Source of the DNA: Eledone cirrhosa
Taxonomy: Eukaryota
Reading direction: 5' to 3'
DNA: 64,000 bases
Assembly (NCBI GenBank): GCA_964016885.1
Contig: OZ024741.1
Span: 266,972,001 to 267,036,000, forward strand
This document shows positions 5,056 through 61,100 of this stretch, one piece after another (position 1 is the stretch's first letter; each line of letters starts with the position of its first letter). Both the position numbers and the translations under genes were made by a program. The notes under the pieces are model-generated. The model searched no databases. It was given only the letters and a program-made list of their open reading frames with translations, and was not told the origin of the DNA.

Positions 5056-5219
5056 AAAAATATAATATATATATATATAATATATATATGCAAAAGTTTT
5101 ATTTAAAATTGTTGGGTTACAACGAGTAAATATTTTATAACTGATATAAAGCACTCAACAAGTTTTGGAGTAGATATACGATATTAAACAAATGGAAACT
5201 ATATTTATAAAACCATATT

Positions 5220-5285
5220 TATTTCATTATACATATTTCAGGGATACCATATTAAAAATATGGCATGCCTTCTTCAGATAAAATA
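5220..5285 (-). ncRNA. Hammerhead, family C/G (copy in inverted head)
   Basis: Reverse complement of the motif at 8571-8636. Confidence 0.75.
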
Positions 5286-6070
5286 CAATATATAAGCAGT
5301 TTTATAAATAAATTTGACGTACCATAAATATTGTTCAACTTCCATTTAAAAAAGTTGGTTTGGTAGTGAAATGTTTGTAAATATTTAGTGTTAAGCACAG
5401 TTAAAAAGAAAGACGGAGAGAAGGAATAAATGTATGTAAAGAGAAACAGAGAGAGATAGAGAGAGATATGGGAGAGAGAGATAGTGAGGGGGTGAAAAAT
5501 GAGAGGCAGCTGAGGCAACAGATGAATAATAATAATAATTCATCATACAAATTGAGAGATTTAGGAGGGAGGGAGTACTGTAATTATTTATTTATTTATT
5601 TATTTAGTGATAGTGTTAAGGAGACGGAGAGAAATAAAAAATAAATAAAGAGAAAACAGCGATACTTAAATTTCATCATGTATAGAGGGTGGAGAAGAAA
5701 GAGTTATATCTAGAGAGAAGGATGACAGATTTATAACTTTACGTTATGTCCTATCAGTTTGAATTATCAATTCATATGAATTGGGTATTATAATGTAAAT
5801 ATCAATATTCATGAATGAGACATAGATATATAATGTGTGAAAAATAATGACCATATGTTTAGTTTAAAAATTCTTAGGTCGATATATCAAAAACTGAGAT
5901 AAAACTTCAAAAATACATAAGTATATATGTACTTTCCGGAAAAAAAAAAGAAAGAAAGAGAAAAAGAAAAAGAGAAGGTCATCTCAAGTTCTAGTTGACA
6001 CTATAGATATACACGTGAACTTACGTGATCAGCTCTGTAATTTCTTATTTCACATGAAAAAATTTTTTTA

Positions 6071-7247
6071 TATCGTGATGACATGCTTTTACTTATTGAA
6101 AATAATAACTCTGAACTAAATAGAAAAAGAAAACAAATTATACAATTTTTTAATTACCTTAATCTAAAAATAGAAATAGAGAATAACCATAGAATAGTCA
6201 ATTTCCTAGATGTAACACTAAATCTCAACACATGTCTTCACTATCCATTTCACAAACTAAATGAAAACTTGAATTATGTCAGTTTTAACTCTAATCACCC
6301 CAGATCTGTTAAAAATACTATAGTGAACTCTGTTCAAGAACGTATCTCAAGAATTTCATCTAATAAAAATATTTTCGACGAAAAAGCGCAGTATTACAAT
6401 GAAGCGTTAGCTAGAGCAGGATATAGTGATAAAATTATGTACATTGATAATAATAGGCAAACTAACCAAAATAACAACAATTTTAATTACGGTAACAACT
6501 TTAACAACTATAATAGAAAGCATTACAATAATTTCAAAAGCCAGAAAAGAAATAGAACTAGAAATATAATATGGTTTGCCCCCCCCCCCCCCCTTCTCAC
6601 TAAATATTAAAACCCACATTGCTAAACTATTTTTTAATGCTCTTGACAAACGCTTCCCTAGAACACATAAATATCACTCAATTTTTAATAGACATACTAT
6701 AAAATTAACTTACTCGTCCACCAAAAATTTAGCACAAAATATTAACAGAATAAATAATAGGAATCTAAAACCTAGCCAAAATACCGATAATAGCCTAAAC
6801 AATATTCAATTAAACAACTGTAACTGTAGAAATAAATCTAAATGTCCGTTAAATAACAATTGCTTAGTTAAAAATATAATATACAATTGTAATGTTAAAA
6901 CTGACTTAAATTCTTTTAACTATGTTGGTTCCACCTCGACAGAATTTAAACTTCGCTATAATAATCATAAGAATTCTTTCACAGATCCAGGCAAAAAATC
7001 TTCAACTTCACTATCGGGCTTACTCTGGCAACTTAAACATGATAACGTTGGATATTCGTTGTTTTGGAATATAGTCTCAAGAGGGATTCCTTTTAATTCC
7101 TCATCTGAGACATGTGACCTCTGCGTGGAGGAGATATTCTTTATATTAAAATGTAAAAATTCCCTTAATCTAAGGAGCAATTTATTCAGTTGCTCCAGAC
7201 ATAGATTGAACTCAACGTTTAAATATAAATATAAATTTAAAATGTAG
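6071..7247 (+). pseudogene. PLE RT C-terminus and GIY-YIG, frameshifted at a poly-C run (about 6578-6593)
   Basis: YRDDML...NFLDVTLNL...SNHP, then IIWFAPP/PFS, then CNCRNKSKCPLNNNC, IIYNC...YVGSTSTEFKLRY, CDLC...LNLR...CSRH. Confidence 0.92.
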
Positions 7248-8570
7248 TATATTTAGTTAAGATATTTAATTAATTATGAAACCTGACGATAAATCTTTCG
7301 ATTCCTTCAACTTTTTCTTTTTAAACCTTCTTCATAAATATATACTAATGATGTAATTAAACTACTCTAAAATGTTGATGCTCCCAATCTATTAAATAAA
7401 TTTTACGCTAGATAAACTTCTATACTAAATATAAGAGCATCTGTAGAACAACAGGGTCTCCTAAATCTTTTCAATGATTTCTGCTAAATAAGTCTTGTTG
7501 AATAATTTTGGTTTTTTGTTTGTTTTTTATTCTGATTGCTTCTAATGAACTTGGCAATATATTGTCAGATAAATTGGAAGGGTTGATTTCTGTGGTTGAT
7601 ATGGTGCGCATACTGTATTTTTTTAAGGCCCTAGATACTCTAGGGAGTGATGAAAGTATTCTTAGCGTTTTGATATATTGATATCTGTTGTCTATTCTAT
7701 ACATGAACGATAATCATGTATGTGAGTGCAGGAATATTGATGTTAATATATATTTTTATGTATGTGTATATATGTATATATATATATATAGTAAAATCTT
7801 TTATAACGCAAGGGAAAATTTTTCCATGTGAAATAAGAAATTAGAGAGCTGATCACGTAAGTTCACGTGTATATCTATAGTGTCAACTAGAACTTGAGAT
7901 GACCTTCTCTTTTTCTTTTTCTCTTTCTTTCTTTTTTTTTCCGGAAAGTACATATATACTTATGTATTTTTGAAGTTTTATCTCAGTTTTTTGATATATC
8001 GACCTAAGAATTTTTAAACTAAACATATGGTCATTATTTTTCACACATTATATATCTATGTCTCATTCATGAATATTGATATTTACATTATAATACCCAA
8101 TTCATATGAATTGATAATTCAAACTGATAGGACATAACGTAAAGTTATAAATCTGTCATCCTTCTCTCTAGATATAACTCTTTCTTCTCCACCCTCTATA
8201 CATGATGAAATTTAAGTATCGCTGTTTTCTCTTTATTTATTTTTTATTTCTCTCCGTCTCCTTAACACTATAACTAAATAAATAAATAAATAAATAATTA
8301 CAGTACCCCCTCCCTCCTAAATCTCTCAATTTGTATGATGAATTATTATTATTATTCATCTGTTGCCTCAGCTGCCTCTCATTTTTCACCCCCTCACTAT
8401 CTCTCTCTGTTTCTCTTTACATACATTTATTCCTTCTCTCCGTCTTTCTTTTTAACTGTGCTTAACACTAAATATTTACAAACATTTCACTACCAAACCA
8501 ACTTTTTTAAATGGAAGTTGAACAATATTTATGGTACGTCAAATTTATTTATAAAACTGCTAATATATTG

Positions 8571-8636
8571 TATTTTATCTGAAGAAGGCATGCCATATTT
8601 TTAATATGGTATCCCTGAAATATGTATAATGAAATA
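8571..8636 (+). ncRNA. Type I hammerhead, family C/G
   Basis: tattttat-CTGAAGA-agg cat gccatatt ttt aatatggt atc cct-GAAA-tatgta-TA-atgaaata. Confidence 0.78.
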
Positions 8637-8743
8637 AATATGGTTTTATCAATATAGTTTCCATTTGTTTAATATCGTATAATATATATATATATAATAT
8701 ATATATAATATATAAATATATAATATATATATATATATATAAT

Positions 8744-10141: not shown

Positions 10142-10460
10142 ATATATATATATATAATATATATATATATATAATATATATATATATATAATATTTATAT
10201 ATATATATATAATATATATATATATATATTATATATATATATTATATATATATAATATATATTATATATACATATATAATATATATATATATATTATATA
10301 TATATATATTATATATATATATATAATATATATATATATATAATATTTATGTATATTATATATATATATAATATATATATATATATTATATATATATATA
10401 ATATATATATATATATATAATATATATTATATATATAATATATATATATATAATATATAA

Positions 10461-10903
10461 TACGATATTAAATAAATGGAAACTATATTTATAAAACCAT
10501 ATTTATTTCATTATATATATTTCAGGGATATCATATTAACAATATGTTATGCCTTCTTCAGACAAAATACAATATAGACAGTTTTATAGATAAATAGATT
10601 TGACATGCCGTTCAACATCGACTTGTATTTGAAAAAGTTGATTTTTCAAATACAAGTCGATGTTGAACGGTATGTCAAATCTATTTATCTATAAAACTGT
10701 CAATATTGTATTTTGTCTGAAGAAGGCATAACATATTGTTAATATGATATCCCTGAAATATATATAATGAAATAAATATGGTTTTATAAATATAGTTTCC
10801 ATTTATTTAATATCGTAAATATACTCCAAATACTTGTTGAGTGCTTTTATATCAGTTATAAATATTTACTAGTTGTAACCCAACAATTTAAATATAACTT
10901 TCC
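10461..10903. repeat. Palindromic pair of family C/G 3' ends, with HHRs at 10504-10569 (-) and 10709-10774 (+)
   Basis: ~175-bp arms around gaaaaa-gttga-tttttc (about 10640). HHR reads tattttgt-CTGAAGA-agg...cct-GAAA-tatata-TA-atgaaata. Confidence 0.85.
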
Positions 10904-10936
10904 ATATAATATATAATATATATAATATATATATAA

Positions 10937-18862: not shown

Positions 18863-19978
18863 ATGCAAATGCTTAAAATTTAAATTGCCTTAATTCTATC
18901 GTCTGCTGTTTCATTAAAGGGAGATTCTCGTCTGTATTTAATTCTATCGTCTACTGTTCCACTAAACAGATATACCTCCACTATCGTCTCTATTTATACA
19001 TTTTAACTTATAACTTATACACATTTGATTTGAAATATTTTATCTAGTCCCCCCTCTCAATATTATGATGATTTCTTTCGAATGAAACATTTCTAGTCCT
19101 GTAGAAACCATTTATATATATAATTGAACTGAGTTAAAAATTCACAATATTTATAATTAAATAAGCTCATATATATATGTGTGTATTTATCTGTTTATTG
19201 TATTATATATAATGTGTGTATATACAGGATGTCCCCCAAAAATATATACACACTTCAACAGCATTCTAATAACTATTGCCTGTACAGGTAATCAAAGTGT
19301 CAATCGAATGTTAGTTTCGTGTTTTAACAGTACAAATTTACAATACACACATAAAACCAGTGTATATACATACATGAGTGTGTATACACATACATGAATG
19401 TGTATATACAATATATATGTATATAGACATATATATTCACGGTGCAACGGTACATTAAAATATAGATGCGGGAGAGGGGGGGGTGTATATATAGGGGCGC
19501 TGGGGATAAAGGAGTGTAAAGCGTGTGTAATTGATATATTGAAGGAGAGGAGCGTGCAGCGATAGAGTAACAAATATATAGAGAGGGGGAGAGATGGTAT
19601 TGAAGGGGAGGAGTGCAAAGCGAAAGAGTAAGAGATATATATAGAGACGGAACAGATAGAGAGAAACAGGCGTAAGTAACAGTGGAAGAGATATAGAGAG
19701 AGGTACTCTGATTGGTTGAAAATTAGCCAATGACATACGATCACCACCACCACGGCTATCCCCGAAAAATTTTTTAAGAAGCTACGCATATATGTTAGAA
19801 CACGAAAAGTGAACATTCTGTTGTTTCACACTTTTCGTGTTCTAACAGATAATATATTTATATAAATATATATAATATATATATATATAATATATATATA
19901 TATAATATGTATATATAATATATATATATATATATAAATATATATATATAATATATATATATATATATAAATATATAT

Positions 19979-20009
<31 letters not shown>

Positions 20010-20107
20010 ATATATATATATATAATATATATATATAATATATATATATAATATATATATATATAATATATATATAATATATATATAAATATATATATAA
20101 TATATAT

Positions 20108-20878
20108 TTCAATATTCCTTGTCTGGCTTTCTGGAGAATAGAGGAAAGGTGTTTCCTCGAAAACCAGTATGACTCTAAAAACCGGTTTGTCTGTGTGTTT
20201 ACATACAGAATAGCTGGGTTACTCACAGTAAAGTAACCAGTGAAAGACTTGTTACATCTACATATGTATACGTGTGTGTATTCATATGCACACTAGTATT
20301 TCAGTATGCATATGTAGATGAACATTTTTAACTTAATTGTTTAAGCGTCAGTCATACAAAAGTGAGTTACAAACGAAACGAAATTTAATTTCGTTTCGTT
20401 ATTTGTTTTTATCGTCTCCGCTGAACCGGTGCGTACTCACACTCTATGCAAATTAGTCTGCCCACTACTAATTTTCATAGAAAAAGCATATAACGATATG
20501 TGCTTTTACGATTCTCCAGAAAGGCCGGTAGATAGGTAAATATTGCTGATGAGTTGTAACAACAACGAAACTAGTTCAATATTCCTTGTCTGGCTTTCTG
20601 GAGAATAGAGGAAAGGTGTTTCCTCGAAAACCAGTATGACTCTAAAAACCGGTTTGTCTGTGTGTTTACATACAGAATAGCTGGGTTACTCACAGTAAAG
20701 TAACCAGTGAAAGACTTGTTACATCTACATATGTATACGTGTGTGTATTCATATGCACACTAGTATTTCAGTATGCATATGTAGATGTACATTTTTAACT
20801 TAATTGTTTAAGCGTCAGTCATACAAAAGTGAGTTACAAACGAAACGAAATTTAATTTCGTTTCGTTATTTGTTTTTA
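20108..20878 (+). mobile_element. Diverged 1.6-unit copy of the 467-bp HHR repeat (retrozyme-like); HHR at 20539-20583
   Basis: Same unit as 25733-30910 with scattered substitutions. HHR reads aatattg-CTGATGA-gttg taacaa caac-GAAA-ctag-TT-caatatt. Flanked by (TA)n. Confidence 0.9.
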
Positions 20879-20888
20879 TATATATAAT

Positions 20889-20950
<62 letters not shown>

Positions 20951-21074
20951 AATATATATATATAATATATATATTAATATACATATAAATATATATATAT
21001 ATATATATAATATATATATATAATATATATATAATATATATATTAATATATATATAAATATATATATATAAATA

Positions 21075-21300
21075 TACGATATTAACAAATGGAAACTATA
21101 TTTATAAAACCATATTTATTTCATTATATATATTTCAAGGACACCAAGTTAAATTATGGTGTGCTTTCATCAGATAAAATATAATATAGAGCAGTTTTAT
21201 AAATAAATATTGACATACCCTTAAAGAATGCAACCATTACTGTTGGAAGCTCCCGGATAGTGGAGTTATAACTTTATTAATACTATTATGTAAATTTGTA
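21075..21300 (-). mobile_element. PLE family C/G 3' end with HHR at 21117-21181, cut by the assembly gap
   Basis: tattttat-CTGATGA-aag c acacca...tggtgt c ctt-GAAA-tatata-TA-atgaaata. Confidence 0.8.
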
Positions 21301-21500: not shown

Positions 21501-25732
<4,232 letters not shown>

Positions 25733-25734
<2 letters not shown>

Positions 25735-28700
25735 GTAGATGTACCAAGTTTTTTCACTGGTCACTTTACTGTGAGTGGCCAGCTATTCTGTATGTAAACA
25801 CACAGACAAACCGGTTTTTAGAGTCATACTGGTTTTTGAGGAAACACCTTTCCTCTATTCTCCAGAAAGCCAGACAAGGAATATTGAACTAGTTTCGTTG
25901 TTGTTACAACTCATCAGCAACATTTACCTATCTTCCGGCCTCTCTAGAGAATCGTAAAAGCACATAGCGTTATATGCTTTTTCTATGAAAATTAGTAGTG
26001 GGCAGACTAATTTGCATAGAGTGTGAGTAAGTACCGGTTCAACGGAGACGATAAAAAAAAATAACGAAACGAAATTAAATTTTGTTTCGTTTGTAACTCA
26101 CTTTTGTATGACTGACGCTTAAACAATTAAGTTAAAGATGTACATCCATATATGTATACTGAAATACTAGTATGTATATGAATACACACACGTATACATA
26201 TGTAGATGTACCAAGTTTTTTCACTGGTCACTTTACTGTGAGTGGCCAGCTATTCTGTATGTAAACACACAGACAAACCGGTTTTTAGAGTCATACTGGT
26301 TTTTGAGGAAACACCTTTCCTCTATTCTCCAGAAAGCCAGACAAGGAATATTGAACTAGTTTCGTTGTTGTTACAACTCATCAGCAACATTTACCTATCT
26401 TCCGGCCTCTCTAGAGAATCGTAAAAGCACATAGCGTTATATGCTTTTTCTATGAAAATTAGTAGTGGGCAGACTAATTTGCATAGAGTGTGAGTAAGTA
26501 CCGGTTCAACGGAGACGATAAAAACAAATAACGAAACGAAATTAAATTTTGTTTCGTTTGTAACTCACTTTTGTATGACTGACGCTTAAACAATTAAGTT
26601 AAAGATGTACATCCATATATGTATACTGAAATACTAGTATGTATATGAATACACACACGTATACATATGTAGATGTACCAAGTTTTTTCACTGGTCACTT
26701 TACTGTGAGTGGCCAGCTATTCTGTATGTAAACACACAGACAAACCGGTTTTTAGAGTCATACTGGTTTTTGAGGAAACACCTTTCCTCTATTCTCCAGA
26801 AAGCCAGACAAGGAATATTGAACTAGTTTCGTTGTTGTTACAACTCATCAGCAACATTTACCTATCTTCCGGCCTCTCTAGAGAATCGTAAAAGCACATA
26901 GCGTTATATGCTTTTTCTATGAAAATTAGTAGTGGGCAGACTAATTTGCATAGAGTGTGAGTAAGTACCGGTTCAACGGAGACGATAAAAACAAATAACG
27001 AAACGAAATTAAATTTTGTTTCGTTTGTAACTCACTTTTGTATGACTGACGCTTAAACAATTAAGTTAAAGATGTACATCCATATATGTATACTGAAATA
27101 CTAGTATGTATATGAATACACACACGTATACATATGTAGATGTACCAAGTTTTTTCACTGGTCACTTTACTGTGAGTGGCCAGCTATTCTGTATGTAAAC
27201 ACACAGACAAACCGGTTTTTAGAGTCATACTGGTTTTTGAGGAAACACCTTTCCTCTATTCTCCAGAAAGCCAGACAAGGAATATTGAACTAGTTTCGTT
27301 GTTGTTACAACTCATCAGCAACATTTACCTATCTTCCGGCCTCTCTAGAGAATCGTAAAAGCACATAGCGTTATATGCTTTTTCTATGAAAATTAGTAGT
27401 GGGCAGACTAATTTGCATAGAGTGTGAGTAAGTACCGGTTCAACGGAGACGATAAAAACAAATAACGAAACGAAATTAAATTTTGTTTCGTTTGTAACTC
27501 ACTTTTGTATGACTGACGCTTAAACAATTAAGTTAAAGATGTACATCCATATATGTATACTGAAATACTAGTATGTATATGAATACACACACGTATACAT
27601 ATGTAGATGTACCAAGTTTTTTCACTGGTCACTTTACTGTGAGTGGCCAGCTATTCTGTATGTAAACACACAGACAAACCGGTTTTTAGAGTCATACTGG
27701 TTTTTGAGGAAACACCTTTCCTCTATTCTCCAGAAAGCCAGACAAGGAATATTGAACTAGTTTCGTTGTTGTTACAACTCATCAGCAACATTTACCTATC
27801 TTCCGGCCTCTCTAGAGAATCGTAAAAGCACATAGCGTTATATGCTTTTTCTATGAAAATTAGTAGTGGGCAGACTAATTTGCATAGAGTGTGAGTAAGT
27901 ACCGGTTCAACGGAGACGATAAAAACAAATAACGAAACGAAATTAAATTTTGTTTCGTTTGTAACTCACTTTTGTATGACTGACGCTTAAACAATTAAGT
28001 TAAAGATGTACATCCATATATGTATACTGAAATACTAGTATGTATATGAATACACACACGTATACATATGTAGATGTACCAAGTTTTTTCACTGGTCACT
28101 TTACTGTGAGTGGCCAGCTATTCTGTATGTAAACACACAGACAAACCGGTTTTTAGAGTCATACTGGTTTTTGAGGAAACACCTTTCCTCTATTCTCCAG
28201 AAAGCCAGACAAGGAATATTGAACTAGTTTCGTTGTTGTTACAACTCATCAGCAACATTTACCTATCTTCCGGCCTCTCTAGAGAATCGTAAAAGCACAT
28301 AGCGTTATATGCTTTTTCTATGAAAATTAGTAGTGGGCAGACTAATTTGCATAGAGTGTGAGTAAGTACCGGTTCAACGGAGACGATAAAAACAAATAAC
28401 GAAACGAAATTAAATTTTGTTTCGTTTGTAACTCACTTTTGTATGACTGACGCTTAAACAATTAAGTTAAAGATGTACATCCATATATGTATACTGAAAT
28501 ACTAGTATGTATATGAATACACACACGTATACATATGTAGATGTACCAAGTTTTTTCACTGGTCACTTTACTGTGAGTGGCCAGCTATTCTGTATGTAAA
28601 CACACAGACAAACCGGTTTTTAGAGTCATACTGGTTTTTGAGGAAACACCTTTCCTCTATTCTCCAGAAAGCCAGACAAGGAATATTGAACTAGTTTCGT

Positions 28701-28944
28701 TGTTGTTACAACTCATCAGCAACATTTACCTATCTTCCGGCCTCTCTAGAGAATCGTAAAAGCACATAGCGTTATATGCTTTTTCTATGAAAATTAGTAG
28801 TGGGCAGACTAATTTGCATAGAGTGTGAGTAAGTACCGGTTCAACGGAGACGATAAAAACAAATAACGAAACGAAATTAAATTTTGTTTCGTTTGTAACT
28901 CACTTTTGTATGACTGACGCTTAAACAATTAAGTTAAAGATGTA
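25733..28944 (-). repeat. 467-bp tandem array, left arm (about 6.9 units); HHRs on the - strand at 25880-25924 plus n x 467 (7 copies)
   Basis: Exact 467-bp period (ORF track repeats at 25775, 26242, 26709 and onward). Each unit carries a minimal type I hammerhead. Confidence 0.95.
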
Positions 28945-28952
28945 CATCCATA

Positions 28953-30910
28953 TACATCTTTAACTTAATTGTTTAAGCGTCAGTCATACAAAAGTGAGTT
29001 ACAAACGAAACAAAATTTAATTTCGTTTCGTTATTTGTTTTTATCGTCTCCGTTGAACCGGTACTTACTCACACTCTATGCAAATTAGTCTGCCCACTAC
29101 TAATTTTCATAGAAAAAGCATATAACGCTATGTGCTTTTACGATTCTCTAGAGAGGCCGGAAGATAGGTAAATGTTGCTGATGAGTTGTAACAACAACGA
29201 AACTAGTTCAATATTCCTTGTCTGGCTTTCTGGAGAATAGAGGAAAGGTGTTTCCTCAAAAACCAGTATGACTCTAAAAACCGGTTTGTCTGTGTGTTTA
29301 CATACAGAATAGCTGGCCACTCACAGTAAAGTGACCAGTGAAAAAACTTGGTACATCTACATATGTATACGTGTGTGTATTCATATACATACTAGTATTT
29401 CAGTATACATATATGGATGTACATCTTTAACTTAATTGTTTAAGCGTCAGTCATACAAAAGTGAGTTACAAACGAAACAAAATTTAATTTCGTTTCGTTA
29501 TTTGTTTTTATCGTCTCCGTTGAACCGGTACTTACTCACACTCTATGCAAATTAGTCTGCCCACTACTAATTTTCATAGAAAAAGCATATAACGCTATGT
29601 GCTTTTACGATTCTCTAGAGAGGCCGGAAGATAGGTAAATGTTGCTGATGAGTTGTAACAACAACGAAACTAGTTCAATATTCCTTGTCTGGCTTTCTGG
29701 AGAATAGAGGAAAGGTGTTTCCTCAAAAACCAGTATGACTCTAAAAACCGGTTTGTCTGTGTGTTTACATACAGAATAGCTGGCCACTCACAGTAAAGTG
29801 ACCAGTGAAAAAACTTGGTACATCTACATATGTATACGTGTGTGTATTCATATACATACTAGTATTTCAGTATACATATATGGATGTACATCTTTAACTT
29901 AATTGTTTAAGCGTCAGTCATACAAAAGTGAGTTACAAACGAAACAAAATTTAATTTCGTTTCGTTATTTGTTTTTATCGTCTCCGTTGAACCGGTACTT
30001 ACTCACACTCTATGCAAATTAGTCTGCCCACTACTAATTTTCATAGAAAAAGCATATAACGCTATGTGCTTTTACGATTCTCTAGAGAGGCCGGAAGATA
30101 GGTAAATGTTGCTGATGAGTTGTAACAACAACGAAACTAGTTCAATATTCCTTGTCTGGCTTTCTGGAGAATAGAGGAAAGGTGTTTCCTCAAAAACCAG
30201 TATGACTCTAAAAACCGGTTTGTCTGTGTGTTTACATACAGAATAGCTGGCCACTCACAGTAAAGTGACCAGTGAAAAAACTTGGTACATCTACATATGT
30301 ATACGTGTGTGTATTCATATACATACTAGTATTTCAGTATACATATATGGATGTACATCTTTAACTTAATTGTTTAAGCGTCAGTCATACAAAAGTGAGT
30401 TACAAACGAAACAAAATTTAATTTCGTTTCGTTATTTGTTTTTATCGTCTCCGTTGAACCGGTACTTACTCACACTCTATGCAAATTAGTCTGCCCACTA
30501 CTAATTTTCATAGAAAAAGCATATAACGCTATGTGCTTTTACGATTCTCTAGAGAGGCCGGAAGATAGGTAAATGTTGCTGATGAGTTGTAACAACAACG
30601 AAACTAGTTCAATATTCCTTGTCTGGCTTTCTGGAGAATAGAGGAAAGGTGTTTTCTCAAAAACCAGTATGACTCTAAAAACCGGTTTGTCTGTGTGTTT
30701 ACATACAGAATAGCTGGCCACTCACAGTAAAGTGACCAGTGAAAAAACTTGGTACATCTACATATGTATACGTGTGTGTATTCATATACATACTAGTATT
30801 TCAGTATACATATATGGATGTACATCTTTAACTTAATTGTTTAAGCGTCAGTCATACAAAAGTGAGTTACAAACGAAACAAAATTTAATTTCGTTTCGTT
30901 ATTTGTTTTT
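28953..30910 (+). repeat. 467-bp tandem array, right arm (about 4.2 units); HHRs at 29171-29215, 29638-29682, 30105-30149 and 30572-30616
   Basis: Reverse complement of the left arm. HHR reads aatgttg-CTGATGA-gttg taacaa caac-GAAA-ctag-TT-caatatt. Confidence 0.95.
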
Positions 30911-31202: not shown

Positions 31203-31210
31203 GTATATAT

Positions 31211-32770
31211 GTAAAGTTATATTTAAAATTGTTGGGTTACAACTAGTAAATATTTATAACTGATATAAAAGCACTCGACAAATATTTGGAGTATATTTAC
31301 AATATTAAATAAATGGAAAACTATATTTATAAAACCATATTTATTTCATTATATATATTTCGGGGATATCATATTAACAATATGCTATGCCTTCATCAGA
31401 CAAAATACAATATAAACAGTTTTATAGATAAATATATTCGACATACCGTAATAAACATCAACTTCATTTGAAGAGGTTTACTCTAGCAGTGAAAATACAG
31501 AGAGAAAGAAAGAGAGAAAGAAAAGAGGGAAAAACGAAAGAAAGAAAGACAAAACGAAGAGAAGGAAGAAAAAGAAGAAAAAGAAAAAGAAGAAATGCAT
31601 GGAACAAAATAGAGAGATGGAAAAATAGATAAAGTGAAGAGCTTCATGTAAAGAGACAGAAAGATATATATATATAGAGAGAGAGGAAATAGAGATAGAT
31701 ACATATATATATATAGAAAATTAGGTAGTGGGAGGTCATTTTGAGTAAGTGTATCAATGATACATTTATTTATTTATTTATTTATTTAGCTCAAGTATTA
31801 ATGTAAGGGAGATATATAGAGAGATATAGAGAGATATAGAGAGAGAAAAAAATTTTAAAATATCCAGACATATTCGAGGCGTAGAAAACCCTATGTTTTA
31901 ATGTATTAGTATTTATATATTTATAAAACTTACACTACACTGTAAATATCAGTATTCCTGAATGAAACAAGTATTCACAATGTGTGAAAATTCATTATCT
32001 TATGTTTAGTTTTAAAAATTCATATGTCTATGTGACAGCTACAAATCTCAATTTGAATCCAACTGATTCACTCCGCAAACTCTAAGTTATCGGAAAACAT
32101 TCTCAACGTGGTATAAAAATTTGAGCGTATTATTATTCTTGCGATTACTCTACAAGATTATCTATCAAGCAGAAATAGAGAGCAGATTTCAATATACTAA
32201 TCGAAAATATATATTATTAAACATAATAATAAGTAAAAATATAGAATAGAAAACTAAAAAAATATTACGAAAGAATATTACATAATAAAAATATTGCATA
32301 TTAAAAATACTACGTATTAAAAAATATTACGTATTAAAGATTTACATATAAAAATTTACATATAAAAATATACATATAAAAATTTACATATAAAAATTTA
32401 CATATAAAAATATATAAAAATATTAAAAAAATAAATAAAATAAAAATAAAAATATTATAGAATACTACAATACTAAAAGAATAAAAGTAAAAATAAAAAT
32501 AAAAATAAAAATAAAAATGAAAATAAAAATAAACCACAAAAAAACAACCCTTCAAAGTTAATTGACAATATATTGCCACGTTCACTACAAGACAAAGCCA
32601 AAAATTATCTATCAAATCACATCTAGCAAAGAATATCGTAAAAAAGATTATGATGTCCAATTATGTCTACATATGTTCCTATGTTTAATATAGAAGTTTA
32701 TCTAGTGTAAGGTTAATTCAAAAAATTTGGAGCATCGGCTTTTAGGGTAGCTTAATTTTTCATGAGGAAT
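31211..32770 (-). mobile_element. PLE family C/G-related 3' UTR fragment with HHR at 31342-31407
   Basis: The terminal block matches 10461-10903 and 60700-60900. About 32670-32760 (minus strand) resembles the 3' UTR at 7360-7440. Confidence 0.78.
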
Positions 32771-32824: not shown

Positions 32825-38164
<5,340 letters not shown>

Positions 38165-41005
38165 ATCATCATCATCATCATCATCATTTTACGTCCGCTT
38201 TTCCCTGCTTGCAAGGGTGGGACGGGTCTTATTCAGCACAGCATCTCTCCACTCGTCACGGTCCCTCGTCATCTCCACCGTGAGCTTCAATGATCTGAGG
38301 TCTGTTCTCACCACCTCCGCCCATGTTTTTCGTGGTCTACCTCTACCACGTCTTCCTTCAACTGGCATTTCCTGGCACTTCTTCACCCATCGGTCATCCT
38401 CCATGCGCATCACATGTCCATACCACCTCAGTCTCCTCTCCCGTACACTACATTCTATCCCTCTCAGACACAGTTTCTCTCTCAACACATTTATGCTGGG
38501 TCGTTCACGCACATTTACACTGCACATCCAACGGAGCATGCTTGCCTCATTTCTCTCCAGCCGTCGCATATCTTCTGCGGTAGCTGCCCATGTCTCACTA
38601 CCATGCAGCATCGCGCTCCTCACACAGGCATCATACAACCGGCCTTTCGTACGCAGGGAGAAACCCTTCTTCGTCAACAGAGGAAGCAGCTCCCTAAACT
38701 TCTTCCAACCCGTCCTTATTCTAGATACTATGGCCTCGGAACACCCTCCTCCCATGCTAATCTGATCTCCTAGGTACCGGAAGCTATCCACCACTTCTAT
38801 AGCGCCCTCTCGCATTTGAAAAATGTGTCTATCAGTGCGACTTCTACTGTCTAATTTCCCTGTACATCTACTGCATACATATTTCTCCCTACCTGTTAGT
38901 TTGCCTGCTATCCCGCTACATCTCTTGTGTACCCAGGACCTACATTGTGTGCATTTTATAGAATTTATGCCAGTTCCTTTTCTGCATATCGAACATGGCC
39001 ATTTCCCTGACGGAATCAGGGTTTTGTCCTCTTTTCTACTCATCAACACTTTTGTCTTAGCTAGATTTACTCTCCGTCCTCTTGCTTCCAACTGCTGTTT
39101 CCATACCCAGAATTTATTCTCTAGCTCCTCTACTGATTCTGCCATAAGAGCCAGATCGTCAGCATAGAGAAGTTCCCATGGACAGCCAGTCTTAAACTCC
39201 TCTGTTATGGCTTGGAGGACTATAATGAACAAGAGCGGGCTGAGGACCGAACCCTGATGTACTCCTACTTGTATCTGGAATTCCTCACTAAACTCCATTC
39301 CTACCCTGACTTTACTGAGAGTACCTCTGTACAAAGTTTGCACTGTCCTTACAAGCCATTCCTCAACACCCAGCTTCCTTAGGGACCACCAGATGACAGA
39401 TCGGGGTACCCTATCAAAGGCCTTCTCTAGGTCAACAAAGGCTAAGTATAGTGGCTTATTCTTCTCTAAGAACCTCTCTTGCATTTGTCTCACCAAGAAG
39501 AGGGCATCTGTTGTACTCTTCCCAGGCACAAAACCAAACTGCATCTCATCTAGTTTGACCCTTTCTCTAATTAGTTGTGCTAAAATCCTTTCTGCCACTT
39601 TCATAACCTGATCTATCAGTTTTATACCCCTATAATTGCTCCTCTCCAAAGCATCCCCTTTACCTTTGTAGCAATTTATGAGAATACTGCTGCACCAGTC
39701 TTTGGGTATGACACCACCATATATAGCCTGATTGATTATGCGTGCAACCAGTTTAGTGCCTACGTCCCCTGATGCCTTCAGCATCTCAGCAACTATTCCC
39801 GATGGTCCGGCCGCCTTACCATTTTTCATTTCCCTAATCGCCTCTTGGACCCTATATTCGTCAATCTCAATAGCTGGTCCCTCTGTCGGATCTACCAATG
39901 GTAATTTCTCTCTCTCCCATTCGTTCTCCACATTCATCAGTCTCTCATAATGACATTTCCAGGCCTCCTTTTTCTGGTCATTCGTGACACTAAGTACACC
40001 GGCATCATCCCGGACACATTTATCACCAACAACATCCTGATTTGCATTGACACACTGCCTTGCAATGTGGAACGCCGCACGCCTCTGATCTTCCCGTCGC
40101 AGAACATTGGCAAACCTCCTACTCTCTGCCTCCCTGCGTGCTAAGTACACCTGACGTCTAGCTTCTCTCTTAGTGGCTGTATATTCTTCCCTACTCCCAC
40201 CCTTATTCCAAGCCTTCCATGCTAGTCTTTTGTCTCTAATAGCCTTATCTACACTGCTGTTCCACCACCAGGTCACTCTCTGTCTGGTTGGAGCTCTGCT
40301 CCAGCCACAGGTTTCATCAGTAGCCTTCAGCAAGTTGTCACGTAAGAACTTCCAGTTATTATCTATGTCATACGTCACTAAATCGTCTTCTTTTTCGTCA
40401 TATAGATCTTGAAGGGCTTTCCTAAATTTGAATTTTAGTGAAAGGTCTTTTAGCTTCCAGACCTTTCTTCTCCACACCTTCCTATATGTCTCATTCCATC
40501 TCTTGCTTACTGAGATATCACTAACAACTAACCTATGCTGTGGGGTACATTCTTCCCCAGGGTATGCCTTGGTATTAGACACTATCTGCCTGTCCCGCTG
40601 CCTAACTAGCAGGAAGTCAATCTGGCTTATGTGCTCACCAGATTTGTAGGTTATTAGGTGATTGGCAGGTTTCTGGAAATTTGTGTTGCAAATAGTCAAT
40701 GTACTTGCATCACAAAATTCAAGAAGTCTCACTCCTTCTTCATTTCTTGAACCGTACCCGTGCCCACCATGTACCCCAGTGTAACCATCCTGGAGCTGTC
40801 CAACATGACCATTGAAGTCTCCTGCTAGCATAACGATGTCTCCGTCCTCTGTCATTGTGGTTGTTTGCAAAAGTTGCTCATAAAAGCAGTCTTTCTCATC
40901 TTTGCCTAGGCCTGCTTGGGGAGCATAGACCGAGATGATTGTCAGTAGTCTCCTACCTACAACTAATCTAAGCTTAATTATTCGATTACTAACTCGAACA
41001 ACCTC
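38165..41005 (-). mobile_element. RTE-clade non-LTR retrotransposon, 5'-truncated, with (ATG)n tail
   Basis: Single APE-RT ORF. The (atg)n tail at 38165-38187 follows the stop almost directly. Inserted in (TA)n. Confidence 0.93.
38189..41005 (-). CDS. RTE ORF (partial): AP endonuclease, reverse transcriptase and PHD-like finger
   Basis: The frame is open upstream of the listed TTG ([14 protein letters not shown]...ISVYAPQAG). Motifs: [76 protein letters not shown]. Confidence 0.93.
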
Positions 41006-41822: not shown

Positions 41823-44800
41823 TCAGGATTTGGGCACCATGGCCCATTCGAGAAGAGAATTACTGTTTGCGGAGACATATCCGGGTGTGGGTGGTTTGTC
41901 CGGGATTACTTGGAGGAATTTGTCCAAAGACTTCTTGAATTTTGTGTGGTCAGTTTCTGTTTTGACGTGACCTGGTGTGATGTTGAAGAGAGCAGGGCCG
42001 ATTGAGGTGAAATAATTGTGCCGTATTGTTGTTATGAGTTGCGATTTAGATTTTTGAATGGGACGGATAGCACGGGGCCCAAGCCTTGGGTGTATCTTGA
42101 AGGCGATGCCAACATCATTTGGGCAGTGATGATGGAACATTTTCCACATCATGCAGATAATATAACGCTCACGGCGACGTTGGAGTGAGTAAAGTTTCAG
42201 GTTTTCTAATCGACCCCAGTAGTCAAGGTCTGACATGCATTCTATCTTTTTCGTGATTGCCCTTTGAGGAGCTTCAAGTTTCATGATACTTTGTTTCGTG
42301 TGGGGAGACCACAGTGGACAACAGTATTCAAGGTGTGGTCGGGCAAAAGTAGAGAAGAGAAGGATAATGGTGCGGGAATCTCTCGACTGGAAGGTTCTGA
42401 GGATCCAGGAACACATTCTGCGGGCCATGTCAACTTTGCTGCTTATATGCGTGGTCCAGCTTATGTTGCTGTCCACGGTTACTCCCAAGTCTCTGATGTT
42501 GTTAGATGCCACGAGAGTTTCCCCGGAGGGAAGGGAGTACGGGAGTTTCAGAGCATCCTCTTTTCCAAAGTGGATCAGTTCGAATTTGTCTTCGTTCAGT
42601 AACATGTTGTTCTTTTCCGCCCATTGGGTAACAGCCAGTAGGTCTGACTGAAGGCTTATCCGGTCATCCACGCCATTGATGACCTTTTGGAGCTTGGAAT
42701 CATCAGCGAAAATTTTAATGTTGCTGTGTTTGATGATGTCAGTGATGTCATTAATATAGATGATGAAGAGAAGTGGGCCCAACACAGTGCCTTGTGGGAC
42801 CCCACTACTGACTTTGGCTGGGCTTGATTTGACTCCCTCAACTACAACATTTTGGGTTCTGTTTGACAGGAAGCTCTTGATCCACTGCAGCAGCTTTCCA
42901 GTGACACCAATATTGGACAGCTTTCTCAGTAGAATGTTATGATCAACCCTGTCAAAGGCCTTGCTGAAATCAAGGTAGATAACATCAGTGTTGGAACCCT
43001 CTCCCAAGGCTCTCAAAATGTCATCAAAGTGATGCAGTAGCTGCGTCAGGCAATCCCTTCCATTACGGAATCCATGCTGGTTGGAGTTCAGCATATTGTT
43101 ACTCTCAAGGAAGTGGGTCATTCGCGATCTCACCACTCGCTCAAATACCTTAATGATATGAGAGGTGAGTGAGATTGGACGGTAATTCACGGCAAGGGAT
43201 TTGTTTCCCTTTTTGAAAACTGGGACAACAGACTGGGATAGAAGGTTTTCTGGCACATATCCAGCATCCAGTGAGTTCCGCCACAGATTGGCAAGAGGAG
43301 ATGCAAGTTGGTGTTGACACGCCTTCAAGACACAAGCAGGGAACCTATCGGGACCTACTGCTGAATTATGCTTGATTTCCTTTATTGCCGCCAAGACATC
43401 AGGGGCGCCAAACGTTATGTCCGATAAGGTGTAATGGGGAGTAACATCGCCGATACAGCCCAGATCGGCCATATCAGGATTGCTGAAAACAGAGCAGTAT
43501 TGTTTCTGCAGTATCTCACCCATGGTTTTAGCATTGTCTTGAAGAGTGCCATTTTCATCAATTAGAGGGCCAACAGTAGAGCCAGTGATTTTGTGTTTTT
43601 TTGCAAATGAAAAGAACACTTTGGGATTGAGTTTGATCTTCTCAATGGCCCAGGCCTCTTCAGCTCTTCTCTGATTGTTGATGAGGGACATTATGTTGTT
43701 TTGGAGGTTATGTTTTTTAATCTCTAGTGATGAAATGGCAGTCAAGTTGATGTGTTGCTGCTGACAGTATTTCAGCTTGTTGATTTTTTTGTTCGTTCTC
43801 TTAATTTTTCTGATGAGCGTTTTTCTATTTCTAGGGATTCTGCTCTTAGATTTGTTTATAGTTCTTAATGGGGTGTGTTTAGCACATATGTTTGTAACAG
43901 TGTCCACAAATGTCTGCCAGGACTTTTTGATGTTAGTGGGTGTATGAGTGTGCGTGAAGGACCAGTCGACATGTGCAAGATCATGACTGATCGCTTCCCA
44001 GTTTGCATTGTGGAAATCCATAGCGTCAAACGGATGGACAGGAGAGATGACATTGGGTTTGTATATTGGACGGTGGAATCTCAGATCACAGAGAACCATG
44101 TCATGATCAGAGAGTAGAGTTTTCTCCACTGCAATATTGTGGATATTGTCAGTGTGATTGCTGAAAATTAAGTCTAGGACGTTTTTGTGGCACCTCGTTG
44201 GTTCGAGCACCAGTTGGGATAGGAAGAAATCATCCATGAAGTCAAGAAGCGATTCCACAGCTTCCCTGTCAGAGGTTGAGGCAGAAGAACCTGGTGGCAG
44301 GCTGTTTGTGGACCAGTCAACTCCGGGGAGGTTGAAGTGCCCCATCATTAAGATGTTGTCAGGGTGACACTCTTGGATGAAACACTTTATGCTGTTGAGG
44401 CATTCCTTGAAGCATGGTACAGGCGTTTGGGGTGGCCTATAGAGCCCAACTACTAATAGGTTGTTGGTTTGACTGAATACAGTGACTGCTTCACAATATC
44501 CATTAGTGAATATGTTCATAGCCTCTGTTGAGAAAGAATTATGGACATAAATGGCAGTTCCGCCCTTTCTTCTGCCAGCGCGATCAGCACGGATGGCTTT
44601 GAAATTTTTCACTTTCACCTCGGCTTCCAAGTGGAGGTTACTGAGATGGGTTTCAGTGAGGACGAAGAAAGGGATGTGGTTTGGATGGACATCAATCCAG
44701 TCCTCCAGGAATTTGATCTTCCATTTTTGAGTATTGGTGGAAGGGCTGATGCCTTGGGCGTTAAGCAAAAATGTAGAGGCGAGAGTGGATGGTTTTAATT

Positions 44801-46523: not shown

Positions 46524-46590
<67 letters not shown>

Positions 46591-46591
46591 G

Positions 46592-46661
<70 letters not shown>

Positions 46662-46847: not shown

Positions 46848-46881
<34 letters not shown>

Positions 46882-46907
46882 TGTATATGTATATATATAT
46901 GTATATG

Positions 46908-46938
<31 letters not shown>

Positions 46939-56488: not shown

Positions 56489-56526
<38 letters not shown>

Positions 56527-56529
<3 letters not shown>

Positions 56530-59500
56530 GATATTAATAAATGGAAACTATATTTATAAAACCATATTTATTTCATTATATATATTTCAAGGATACCAAG
56601 TTACATTATGGTATGCCTTCATCAGACAAAATACAATATATAACAGTTTTATAAATAGACATTGACGTACCCCTTTAAAAATTGACCGTTGCTTTTGGAG
56701 GCCATCAGGATAGTGATTTGTTTACTTTAGTAAGTCGTAGTGTTAAGAGTAAGTAAAACGATGGAGAGAGAGAGAGAAACGTGGAGAAAAGAAAGGGAGA
56801 GATAGATAAAGAAAAAGAAGAAAGCAAAAAGAAAAGAGAACAGAGGAAAAATAACGGGGAGATATCAAACCATCAGACAGAGAAAAAATCCAGAGAGAGA
56901 TATATAGAGATAGAGAGAGGGGGGAGAGAACGAAAACCTTAAGTTATGTCATATTAAGTTGAGTTAACAGTTGGGATGAAAATCATAAATAAAATTAGAA
57001 ATATTAATATTCATGAATGGAATATAGATATATAATATGAGAAATTACACATTGTTTAATTATGATTAGATATTTAGTTTAAAATTGAGATCAATATATT
57101 AAAAATTAGAATTTAAACATTATAAAATATATATATTGCTAGAGAGATTATCTATCGCATATTACATACACATAGGCAAAGGTACATAAATATATATATA
57201 TACACACACTCACTCAGAAAATACACATTATATCTACTCACCCATTTAATATGTATATACAAAGCATAAGTGATTTTTTATTTATTGCCATACATTCCCT
57301 GTGTTATTAATGGAAAATATAAAGTTTTTAGTATATATATAAATATATAGGATTAACTTTCATGCATTTATGGCTGTTAAGTTATGCATATCTGCAATGA
57401 AAAACTGCATGTGTAAGACTGTACATTCACATCCATAATTCTTAGCTATACATGAATAGATATGTGTGTGCATCTTCAATTGGTATACACGCGTCACTCA
57501 TGCATATATACAGACAGACATATAATCATAAAAAAGCATATAACACATGTATATGTATGTCAACATACACATACAGATACATTAGCCGTACATAGATATA
57601 CGTATACATCAACATATAACATAGTACAATTGAGTATATAAAATACAAAAGGATTATAATTTGGAAATATAATTATATCAATATAACTTAAAAGGCAAAC
57701 GAATTCTACAAATATCAAAATACTAAAATATCCCAAAATATTATAGAATATTTTAAGTTAAAATAATATGTTTAATATATTTAGTATAGAAATTAATCTT
57801 ACGTATATTTTAATCAAGATATTGAAAGGACAAACTTTTGAAAATTATGAGAAGCTATCAGAATAAAAAATCAAAAAAAAATCTAAAAAAATTATGAGAA
57901 GCTATCAGAATAAAAACAAATCTAATAAAAAAAATAAAATAAAATAAATCTAATAAAAAAATAAAAAGAATCTAATAAAAAATAAAATATTATATCAATA
58001 TAACTTAAAAACAAGGATTCTACAGATTTAAAAATATTAAAAAGTTTAAAAATAAAAATTAAAAATTTTTTTTTAAATTTCAAAAAAATTTTTTAAAATC
58101 TCAAAAAAAATTTTAAAAATTAAAAAAATTTTTTTTAAAAATTAAAAAAAAATTTTTAAATTTCAAAAAAATTTTAAAAACTATTAAAATATTATAGAAT
58201 ATTTTAAGCTAAAATAATATGTTTAGTATAGAAATTTATCTTACGTCTATTTTATTCAAGATATTGAAAGGATAAACTTTTCTAGAATAGTTTATTATAT
58301 TTATAATTATATTTATGAAGAAAATTTATACTTGGGTACTTAACTAAAGAAAATGAAAAGGTGAAGGAATCTAATGATTTATCGACAGGTTACATGTATT
58401 AACTAAATTACTTAATTAATTAAAATACATTTTAAATTTATATTTATATTTAAACGTTGATTTCAATCTATGTCTGCAGCAACTGAATAAATTATTCCTT
58501 AAATTAAGGGAATTTTTGGTCTTTAATATAAAAAATATTTCCTCTATACAAAGGTCACAATTTTCTGAAGAGGACTTAAAAGGAGTAGCTTTTGAAATAA
58601 TATTCCAAATCAGCGAATATTCAACATTATCTCGTTTTAGGTCCCATAATAGGCTAGATAGCGAAGTTGAAGATTTTTTGTTTGGATCTGTAAAAGAATT
58701 TTTATGATTATTGAAGCGGGATTTAAATTATGTAGAGGTAGAACCGACATAGTTAAGTGAATTTAAATTAGTTTTAACATTACAATTATAAACTACATTT
58801 TTAGCTAAGCAGTTGTTATTTAACGGACAGTTGGATTTATTTCTACAGTTACAGTTATTCGGTTGAATATTGCTTGGGTTATTATTAGTATTTTGGTTAG
58901 GTTTTAAATTTCTATTATTAATTCTATTAATATTTTGCGCTAAATTTTTGGTGGAAGAGTAGGTTAATTTTATAGTATGTCTATTAAAAATTGAGTAATA
59001 TTTATGTGTTCTAGGGAATCGTTTGTCAAGAGCTTTAAAGAATAGTTTAGCAATAGGGGTTTTAATATTTAGTGAGAAAGGGGGAGCGAACCATAATATA
59101 TTCCTAGTTCTATTTCTTTTCTGGCTTTCGGAGTTATAGTAATATTTTCTATTATGGTTGTTGAAATTGTTACCATAATTAAAGTTGTTATTATTTTGGT
59201 TATTTTGTATATTATTATTATTATCGATGTATTTAATTTTATTTCTATACCCAGCTCTACCTAACGCTTCATTGTAATAATGCGCTTTTTCATCAAATAT
59301 ATTCTTATTAGATGAAATTCTTGAAATTCGTTTTTGAACAGAGTTCACTATAGTATTGTTAACGGATCTGGGGTGATTAGAGTTAAAATTGACATAATTT
59401 AAGTTCTCATTTAGTTTGTGAAATGGATAATGAAGATATGTGTTGAGATTTAGTGTTACATCTAGAAAATTGACTATTTTATGGTTATTCTCTATTTCTA

Positions 59501-60970
59501 CTTTTAGATTAAGGTAATTAAAAAATTGTATAATTTGTTTTCTTTTTCTATTTAGTTCACAGCTATTATTTTCTATAAATAAAAGCATGTCATCACGATA
59601 TAAGCCTCCGGTTACATCTGGTATTTTTCTATGTAGAAAATTAATTATAAATAGGCCCACAAGGTCCGTTACCTGAGCTGAGTCTGAAGATCCCATAGCT
59701 CTGTCGAAATTATTATTTCTATCTGCCTTAGTCCAGAGTTGGTTATTAAATTCTATTAATGTTTTCCGTGCCGATAATATAATGTGCATTTTATTGCTAG
59801 TTAGGTCTGTATGTTTAAATGCGTAAGTTAGTGCCTTATTCAGTAGATTAGGAGTGATAGATGAGTAGTAGTTAGCAATATCCAACTGAATAAACTTATT
59901 ATTATAGTTATATTTAATTTCTTTAAACCAATCGATAACCTCACTAGTCCCTTTCCATAATTTTAAGTAAGATAAATTAGGTAAATTCTTAATTTGTTGT
60001 ATTACTCTGTCTAGAATATTTTTGCTAAGTCTGCCCAGGTCAGATTTAGATGGTGCAATTAATCTGGCTGGTAAATCATTTTCAAAGTTTCTTTTATGAT
60101 CCTTCATATTGATCTTAGGTTTCCTTGGCATGAAGGGTTGTGTTTTATTTTCAATGTCTAGTTCATGCATTATACAAGAGGCATCTGTATTCAGTTTTTC
60201 AAGTTCGTCCTTATTTGCTACATTATATTTCTTCCTTAGTTCCTTCAATATAAGGTCGTTATAAATGTCCTTTTGTATTCCGTAAAGATTATTAGTTTTG
60301 TCCGACTTAACTAGAATTTTCTCCGTTTTCTCCAAGTTTTCAATCTTATCCTTAATATCTCTTAAGTAATCTTGGCCTTTGAAGTTGTTTTTGAATTTGA
60401 CGCTTTGGATGATAGATATGATATCATTTTCAAAATCCATTAGTAGTTTGTTGGGGGGTGGATTTTTTTTAGATTTGAAGATTCTATCCAGATTTGAATC
60501 ATTTTCATTTAGATTAGATTTATCGAAGTGGAAAGCACGCCACCTGATTCTTCTTATAAAAGAGTCTGATTTTTCTATTAATTGCTTAATAAAATCTTTA
60601 TTCCTAGGTAGAGGTATGTCTTTTAGAGAAGAAGAGATCTTAAAGAATTCCATTTTTCAGTTATAATGTAAAGCGCTCAACAATACAGGAGCAGAGTATA
60701 TGCAAAAGTTTTATTTAAATTGTTGGGATACAACAAGCAAATATTTTTATAACTGATATAAAGCACTCGACAAATATTTGGAGTAGATATACGATATTAA
60801 TAAATGGAAACTATATTTATAAAACCATATTTATTTCATTATATATATTTCAAGGATACCAAGTTACATTATGGTATGCCTTCATCAGACAAAATACAAT
60901 ATATAACAGTTTTATAAATAGACATTGACGTACCCCTTTAAAAATTGACCGTTCTTTTGGAGGCCATCAG
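56527..60970 (-). mobile_element. Full-length Penelope-like element (family G) with ~180-bp direct terminal repeats (pLTRs), each carrying an HHR
   Basis: Direct repeats at 56527-56708 and 60790-60970, with HHRs at 56569-56633 and 60832-60896. Single RT-GIY-YIG ORF. (TA)n on both sides. Confidence 0.95.
58416..60653 (-). pseudogene. PLE polyprotein (RT plus C-terminal GIY-YIG), about 745 codons with one in-frame TAA at 58728-58730
   Basis: The 641-aa ORF has KSDKT, ARLI, QLDIANYY, MGS, GLYRDD, FLDV, SNHP, CNCRNKSNCPLNNNC and VVY...YVG. It continues in frame after the TAA (FKSRFNNHKNSF...CDLC...LNLR...CCRH) to a stop at 58416. The copy at about 6941 has GAA at this codon. Confidence 0.93.
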
Positions 60971-61100
60971 TATATATGTATATATATATATATATATATA
61001 TGTATACATGTATATATGTATATATGTATATATATATATATATATACATATATATGTATATATATATATATGTATATATATATACATATATATGTATATA

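Follow-up and report, generated by a model that had tools for sequence, protein, structure and literature searches.

A genomic insertion of a hammerhead retrozyme in Eledone cirrhosa usually has two arms, placed head-to-head, whose ends lie at different fixed points of the repeat unit, about 70 nt apart. We describe this anatomy starting from a stretch of 64,000 nt (assembly GCA_964016885.1, contig OZ024741.1, positions 266,972,001 to 267,036,000 of the forward strand), hereafter the window, to which all coordinates given without a locus name refer. Positions 20110-20877 of the window hold one copy of the element, a non-long terminal repeat (non-LTR) retrozyme with a 467-nt unit and a type I hammerhead ribozyme. 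The insertions are probably copied in trans by the reverse transcriptase (RT)-endonuclease of a Penelope-like element (PLE), itself probably of the Hydra clade, acting from two sites on the retrozyme RNA and joining two head-to-head copies within a (TA)n run, and the ribozyme cut does not set the insertion boundary. Both the enzyme moving retrozymes and the assembly of inverted, tailed PLE insertions are treated as open questions in PMC7761336 and PMC11167929.

The retrozyme copy

The copy is flanked on both sides by (TA)n. Its first unit opens at C 20110, equivalent to the C following the predicted GUU^C cut between 20576 and 20577, and its start can be placed 2 nt ahead of the cut or, if two T are counted as additions, at the cut itself. 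Its last unit base, 20877, is unit position 301 and lies 10 nt past the hairpin at 20839-20867. An earlier note on this DNA had described a start 0-2 nt from the predicted cut, an extent of 1.6 units ending near 20876, a hairpin about 10 nt upstream of the endpoint and a 3' stop in common with the right arm of the main array of the window. As a local description this was right: the copy has 1.64 units, the hairpin comprises 13 bp, and the right arm of the main array also ends at unit 301 (30910).

The hammerhead matches Rfam HH9 at 20528-20599 with 38.6 bits (E 4.3e-8), not reaching the gathering score of 52, and at the gathering threshold Rfam gives no match in the window. Of 179 natural units, 111 have a GUU and 68 a GUC cleavage triplet, and both sides of stem II are changed between subfamilies. 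The unit has a GC content of about 35% and a predicted fold with a z score of -11.3 relative to shuffled sequences. Frames of at least 120 amino acids across the unit are (TA)n read-throughs only, and a frame with RT and GIY-YIG endonuclease is found neither in the unit nor attached to retrozyme arms in the fetched loci. There are no terminal direct repeats beyond the tandem unit; primer-binding site and polypurine tract were not searched for. Each repeat unit carries a type I hammerhead, and the tandem copies are dispersed and low in GC (<50%).

The element thereby resembles metazoan non-LTR retrozymes (Cervera and de la Pena 2020, PMC7229834; 10.64898/2026.07.22.740005), which have a low-GC tandem unit with one type I hammerhead and no coding frame, dispersed monomer-to-multimer copies, a strongly self-paired RNA and PLEs in the same genome. 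It differs in that those are described, in the parts available, as direct tandem repeats without inverted two-arm anatomy or fixed ends. In the literature covered, which did not extend to subscription papers, we found neither a retrozyme breakpoint map nor a two-ended anatomy.

Two fixed 3' ends, one per arm

Matching the whole unit against the 3.0-Gb genome of the same species gave 36 further loci, making 38 with the two window loci; a search with a 101-nt query gave no match and is uninformative. Sixty-two of the 66 outer 3' ends in these loci fall into two 11-nt intervals, 35 into a far one (unit 296-306) and 27 into a near one (unit 224-234). A head-to-head inverted arm is present in 28 of the 38 loci, of which 24 combine a near with a far end and four a far with another end, none having two far or two near ends. 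If arms picked their sites independently, this pairing would arise with P ~4e-8.

Exact junctions of unit 299/301 to (TA)n number 2,210 genome-wide (1,092 forward, 1,118 reverse), with none for the reversed-pattern control, giving at least 2,210 retrozyme loci. The near-junction pattern occurs 727 times forward and 1,370 times reverse, the reverse number being inflated by repeated hits and not a locus count. From the first 100 exact far junctions listed, all within the first 122 Mb of contig C1, 95 loci were kept after dropping L133 (a duplicate of L132), L136 and L180 (array exceeding the fetched DNA) and L150 and L155 (internal deletions). In this far-anchored set the inverted arm is long in 73 loci, tiny in seven and absent in 15, resulting in a head-to-head arrangement in 80 of 95. 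L071 and L161 have an inverted arm without a mapped 3' end; 66 of the 71 mapped inverted-arm ends lie at unit 224-234 (22 at 229, 21 at 231, 17 at 233-234) and none at 296-306, with 67 of the 71 arms running into (TA)n. The near site serves the other arm at loci other than that of the copy at 20110-20877. Anchoring on the near junction gave 22 distinct loci, many overlapping the far-anchored set, in which every visible partner end is far (15 long, two tiny), the remaining five exceeding the fetched DNA.

Target-site duplications are unreadable inside (TA)n. TA microhomology at the 3' sites amounts to 1 nt at 229, 231 and 299 and 2-3 nt at 233 and 301. Being at most 1-3 nt long and variable, it is unlikely to set the priming site, which the earlier note had ascribed to it. 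That note's fixed priming after a hairpin in a U-rich site, with insertion into (TA)n, is supported, its single site being replaced by two, one per arm.

A regular, mirror-like arrangement could also result from processes at the DNA level, namely satellite spread, segmental duplication or palindromic assembly artefacts. The duplicated pair L132/L133, mirrored flanks at L038 (L038:1960-2880, where the outer flanks are alike for about 30 nt past (TA)n in mirror orientation) and a 200-N gap between the two window loci speak for such processes. We give this explanation almost no credence: the two arms are offset from each other by a fixed length, each locus has its own central junction, the flanks past (TA)n differ, three unrelated or diverged families follow the same rule, and in contigs of a public run the far junction appears as loose (TA)n ends. 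Contigs of four runs of unspecified kind show repeat presence only, with partial presence in two further organisms.

The two window loci themselves have a right-flank repeat in common (83% identity over 157 nt), and their left flanks are unrelated. Shared flanks had been named in the earlier note as the mark of a DNA-level duplication; here the repeat is a dispersed Penelope pseudo-LTR (pLTR) with its own hammerhead, occurring eight times in the window, bordering the RT frame at 58728-60656 and inserting into the same microsatellite as the retrozyme. Because this repeat is dispersed and the left flanks are unshared, we reject a segmental duplication of the two loci. The right-arm units of the main array are 94.9% identical to the copy at 20110-20877. 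The inverted arm of the main array ends inside a TA-like stretch (25726-25740) away from the near site, possibly as a result of a later deletion into the flanking (TA)n.

5' ends and the ribozyme cut

The whole-unit query began at the cut and is biased towards arms containing a complete unit, for which reason 5' ends of the loci found with it were left out of the 5'-end test. None of 168 mapped 5' ends lies at -1..+1 of the cut (1.08 expected) and five lie at -4..+5 (3.6 expected). The arms cross the cut 289 times without a stop there, which puts the 95% upper bound at ~1% per passage. Genome-wide, a single (TA)4 has the post-cut sequence no more than 3 nt behind it, namely that of the copy at 20110-20877, and a control position gives two loci; the pattern covers the main subfamilies only, excluding an 88% subfamily. 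A 5' end of the insertion at the cut is rejected by these three results, i.e. the 5'-end map, the genome-wide start count with its control and the count of cut passages, and the start of this one copy at the predicted cut is likely chance.

Eight of 73 inverted-arm 5' ends lie at +1..+21 against 3.3 expected, a weak excess whose uncorrected P of 0.017 rises to 0.77 when treated as a scan. Of 71 long far arms, 21 have their 5' end at unit 200-275 against 11.6 expected (P 0.004 before and 0.135 after scan correction), an excess we do not claim.

A cleaved linear monomer yields at most 301 or 233 nt, lengths exceeded by 73 of the 95 far arms and 56 of the 73 inverted arms. Since the arms are longer than such a monomer allows, we infer that the template was circular or an uncleaved multimer.

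The earlier note had proposed cDNA synthesis on a ribozyme-cleaved linear RNA, primed at a single site by TA microhomology and running off at the cut. Such a process would explain why the copy at 20110-20877 starts no more than 2 nt from the cut, as arm L050 also does (within the set searched with the cut-starting query), and the weak after-the-fact excess of inverted-arm ends just past the cut. With no 5' end at -1..+1, 289 uninterrupted passages, fewer (TA)n-flanked starts than at the control position and two 3' sites instead of one, it is largely refuted as a rule and highly improbable, though conceivable for this one copy. The breakpoint plot along the unit that the note had called for shows the foreseen 3' peak after the hairpin, and its 5' peak at the cut is missing.

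In retroelements of the R2/L1Tc type the ribozyme cut sets the 5' end of full-length copies. The retrozyme differs from them in lacking a 5' peak at the cut, while having in common with R2 and L1Tc, which contain HDV-like ribozymes, a self-cleaving ribozyme within a retroelement (PMC7761336).

A resident Penelope-like element with the same ends

The window contains a near full-length PLE with DKT, CxCX5C and GIY-YIG-like motifs and a hammerhead, features which together with (TA)n insertion are described for Hydra-clade PLEs (10.1101/2021.04.23.441226). By these motifs the resident family probably belongs to that clade. Pfam did not recognise the PLE frames, the assignment relying on motifs and homologues, of which the best named ones are octopod proteins. 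At first look the genome holds ~101,000 PLE candidates, 58 of which were scored, and 55 of the 58 frames listed are stop-free. In the resident PLE the near and far ends are separated by about 88 nt, and eight of nine inverted pairs have one of each, the ninth (L034, 79-80% identical) being unmappable.

Following each PLE start site by 6-9 nt is a similar motif of ~25 nt, with both copies in 21 of 30 loci (L238-L267), the second only in seven and neither in two; in the window the region lies at 60680-60800 on the minus strand. These double motifs are candidate twin binding sites of the enzyme. Related double motifs seemingly lie ahead of the frame in another PLE family (L172). Two further head-to-head PLE insertions of the window (5085-8681 and 10460-10908) each have one near and one far end, the latter being a stump of ~450 nt consisting of pLTR ends only. 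At G000:C7:78452867-78463066 (L247-L249) three stop-free PLE frames follow each other in tandem with a period of 4,011 nt, a pattern expected if an entire PLE were copied by rolling or in tandem.

The anatomy agrees with what is published on PLEs. Their insertions comprise an inverted 5'-truncated copy with a tail on one end only (10.1101/2021.04.23.441226; PMC3846280), the tail being the stretch between two internal RT start sites (PMC11167929). The PLE protein, a predicted dimer, nicks and extends both strands, needing neither homology nor hammerhead cleavage (PMC11167929). Inverted-pLTR/tail insertions of PLEs and Poseidon of Anolis in vitro (PMC3846280; 10.1101/2021.04.23.441226; PMC11167929) are like those of the retrozyme in their head-to-head 5'-truncated inverted copy, extension at one end, two internal starts near stem-loops, AT-rich target and independence of hammerhead cleavage. 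The retrozyme differs in having neither RT nor endonuclease of its own and in that both arms can be multi-unit arrays. Tails measure ~70 nt in the retrozyme, ~60 nt in a second retrozyme family described below and ~88 nt in the resident PLE, compared with 30-40 bp published for PLEs, and the one-near-one-far rule is counted here over ~100 loci, unlike in the available PLE descriptions. With Hydra-clade PLEs (10.1101/2021.04.23.441226) the retrozyme has the (TA)n target and the hammerhead in common, and the resident family, bearing DKT and CxCX5C, has the same near and far ends; the retrozyme differs in lacking sequence alignable to the pLTR of the family examined.

PLEs have been proposed as likely movers of retrozymes, together with rolling-circle cDNA synthesis (PMC7229834, PMC7761336), and Li, Clavereau and Pollet 2026 (10.64898/2026.07.22.740005) link the two by co-occurrence and pLTR similarity. 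Here the link is the insertion anatomy, no pLTR similarity having been found; PMC7761336 reports, in the part available, no conserved motif that indicates the partner of a retrozyme.

Mobilisation by a long interspersed element (LINE) of RTE or CR1-like type, treating the retrozyme like a short interspersed element (SINE) and producing inversions by L1-type twin priming, was considered as another source of the anatomy. LINEs of both types lie nearby, with LINE frames in the window, and the short overlaps at central junctions (40 of 73 pairs) resemble twin priming. In L1 twin priming the internal position taken by the second primer varies, and a SINE mobilised in this way would combine a single fixed 3' end with an inverted part whose outer end differs between copies. 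Here, 66 of 71 inverted arms have their outer end at the fixed interval 224-234, the retrozyme lacks a poly(A) or LINE-like 3' end, and near/far anatomy and target are identical in the resident PLE, which makes a LINE a very unlikely mover.

A second retrozyme family

A diverged retrozyme family with a 466-nt unit and a GUA triplet is found beside some loci of the first family. It occurs in L045:3810-4500 on the minus strand, L046, L081, L188 and L208-L237, its arrays filling entire 3.7-kb loci in places (L208, L210). It can be aligned to the first family across the start sites and the hammerhead. We scored it by junction patterns, automatic arm merging being confused by an internal TA-like stretch. 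Eighteen of its 27 junctions make up nine two-ended loci, all nine being near plus far at positions aligning with those of the first family. The predicted fold is common to both families, placing the near sites at a small hairpin and the far sites in a U-rich, unpaired linker that follows a longer hairpin, within an enclosing helix.

Proposed mechanism of insertion

Our data support a model, which we consider likely, of the retrozyme being inserted at (TA)n from two sites by a PLE enzyme supplied in trans. The enzyme, probably a dimer, would nick both (TA)n strands and, as suggested by the Penelope tail signature, likely prime on both. One 3' end would prime at unit 299-301, in the U-rich linker following the long hairpin, and the second on the same RNA at unit 229-233, in the loop and 3' side of the small hairpin. 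On a circular or uncleaved multimeric template, each cDNA would pass the hammerhead junction for a variable number of turns before stopping at a position that is largely random, and short overlaps or fillers would accompany the joining of the two ends. In single-arm copies such as 20110-20877 the second cDNA may not have been made or may have been lost. The role of the ribozyme would fall earlier, in producing the monomer or circle, and not in setting the insertion 5' end.

Comparisons between and within arms are largely consistent with a common template for both arms of a locus. Among the arms of 35 loci, the partner is the nearest arm in 21 and tied-nearest in six, i.e. in 27 of 35. All 18 units across both arms are identical in L199, 17 of 18 in L066 and eight of nine in the main array of the window, as expected from rolling on one circle. 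Neither arm is systematically longer (34 versus 32). The 73 central junctions comprise 40 overlaps, nine blunt joints and 24 fillers.

These pairs bear on the question of whether one priming event could suffice, the inverted arm arising by fold-back of the cDNA or from self-priming antisense RNA, with endonuclease trimming giving the second fixed end. Self-priming has been proposed for PLEs (PMC3846280), as has endonuclease resolution of an intermediate (10.1101/2021.04.23.441226); 47 of 66 pairs fit one of the two simple fold-back geometries, and three junctions lie at the long hairpin with a 20-nt overlap or filler. The other 19 fit neither geometry, unless later loss of central sequence masks the fit, arm lengths can differ many-fold in either direction, and two RT start sites have been mapped directly for a PLE (PMC11167929). 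We regard a single priming event as unlikely.

A further question concerns the template. The same PLE enzyme might copy not a circle but an uncleaved linear multimeric transcript of an existing array, a variant that we hold to be a real, though tentative, possibility. Arrays of at least 18 units exist as possible sources, units differ within arrays with a period of two (L039, L043) or four (L049), minimal-stem-III hammerheads cleave poorly as monomers (PMC7229834), and uncleaved RNA was the main substrate of a PLE in vitro (PMC11167929). Against this variant, the long stretches of unit identity spanning both arms fit rolling on one circle, and retrozymes of other animals accumulate as circles (PMC7229834). 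Higher-order periodicity of variants, over two, three or four units, is seen in L039, L043, L049, L190 and L197-L198 and may stem from multimeric circle templates or from later tandem duplication.

Several observations weigh against two-site insertion by a PLE enzyme as set out above. In eight of the 35 loci an arm of another locus is closer than the partner, and 47 of the 66 pairs are compatible with fold-back as well. Several arrays are heterogeneous or periodic, for which a single monomeric circle is insufficient without later DNA-level change. Four of 28 and five of 71 inverted arms end off-site, among them that of the main array of the window. The tail of 70 nt exceeds the published length. 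In vitro, the start site is alike for top and bottom strand (PMC11167929), a result that one site per subunit would allow but that does not prove it. In the first family the small hairpin hardly varies and shows little covariation, and the folds are predictions. Finally, neither retrozyme family shows similarity to the resident PLE pLTR across 30 loci, which leaves Hydra-type PLEs as a candidate class of mobilising enzyme. Five further PLE upstream regions likewise show no similarity, two of them scoring above shuffles against the second family, likely via TA runs.

As a tentative generalisation, PLE integration might be an obligatory two-primer reaction, in which a dimer sits on one RNA at two cis-elements, each subunit having its own site and strand and both rolling on a circle, so that every insertion would be head-to-head with a tail on one arm. 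The retrozyme would then recruit the Hydra-clade enzyme by RNA shape and not by sequence, and the PLE double motif would mark the two binding sites. The later steps of PLE insertion are described as unvalidated in PMC11167929.

Thousands of young noncoding insertions of 467 nt bear the PLE end signature with a near-strict one-near-one-far rule, also followed in the same genome by a second retrozyme family and by a PLE many of whose frames are free of stops, giving breakpoint-level support for PLE mobilisation of retrozymes. The 467-nt RNA offers a small substrate with predicted start positions for in vitro work, and a tempting false lead, the ribozyme cut as insertion boundary, is removed.

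Features of the window

Table 1. Retrozyme and PLE features of the window.
Feature	Position	Strand	Rfam
(TA)n target, left part	19852..20107	.	
TT, matching the two unit bases that precede the cut; from the element or untemplated, indistinguishable	20108..20109	+	
Single-arm retrozyme insertion, 1.64 units of 467 nt, far-site end (unit 301)	20110..20877	+	
Type I hammerhead, CUGAUGA core, 5-bp stem II, palindromic minimal stem III; predicted cut 20576^20577	20528..20599	+	HH9
Predicted small hairpin, unit 223-236, second copy 20332-20345; holds near 3' site (unit 229-234)	20799..20812	+	
~70-nt tail separating near and far 3' sites	20806..20877	+	
13-bp hairpin, unit 263-291, second copy 20372-20400; 10 nt before far site	20839..20867	+	
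(TA)n target, right part	20878..21076	.	
Hydra-type PLE pLTR end with own hammerhead, near-site end in the same (TA)n run as copy 20110-20877; separate insertion	21069..21250	-	
Main array, inverted left arm, 6.9 units, head-to-head with right arm; atypical end at unit ~161	25726..28957	-	
Main array, right arm, 4.2 units, far-site end (unit 301)	28953..30910	+	
pLTR end of the same PLE family, far-site end ~88 nt further on	31206..31430	-	
Near full-length Hydra-type PLE	56521..60975	-	
3' pLTR of this PLE, near-site end	56521-56712	-	
RT/GIY-YIG frame of this PLE	58728-60656	-	
pLTR with hammerhead of this PLE	60600-60975	-	

Long LINE frames lie at 38189-41000 and 41823-44960 (minus); among the LINE frames of the window one is RTE-like by eye and one, of 1,045 amino acids, has endonuclease and RT domains (Pfam). 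Multi-kilobase (TA)n arrays at 21509-25734, 32826-38166 and 46437-51784 carry G at regular spacing on one strand only, with a GC skew near +1. A third hammerhead repeat occurs in L051, L152, L172 and L196, as an inverted pair in L051, and is probably another pLTR family, since a similar motif lies upstream of a PLE frame in L172.
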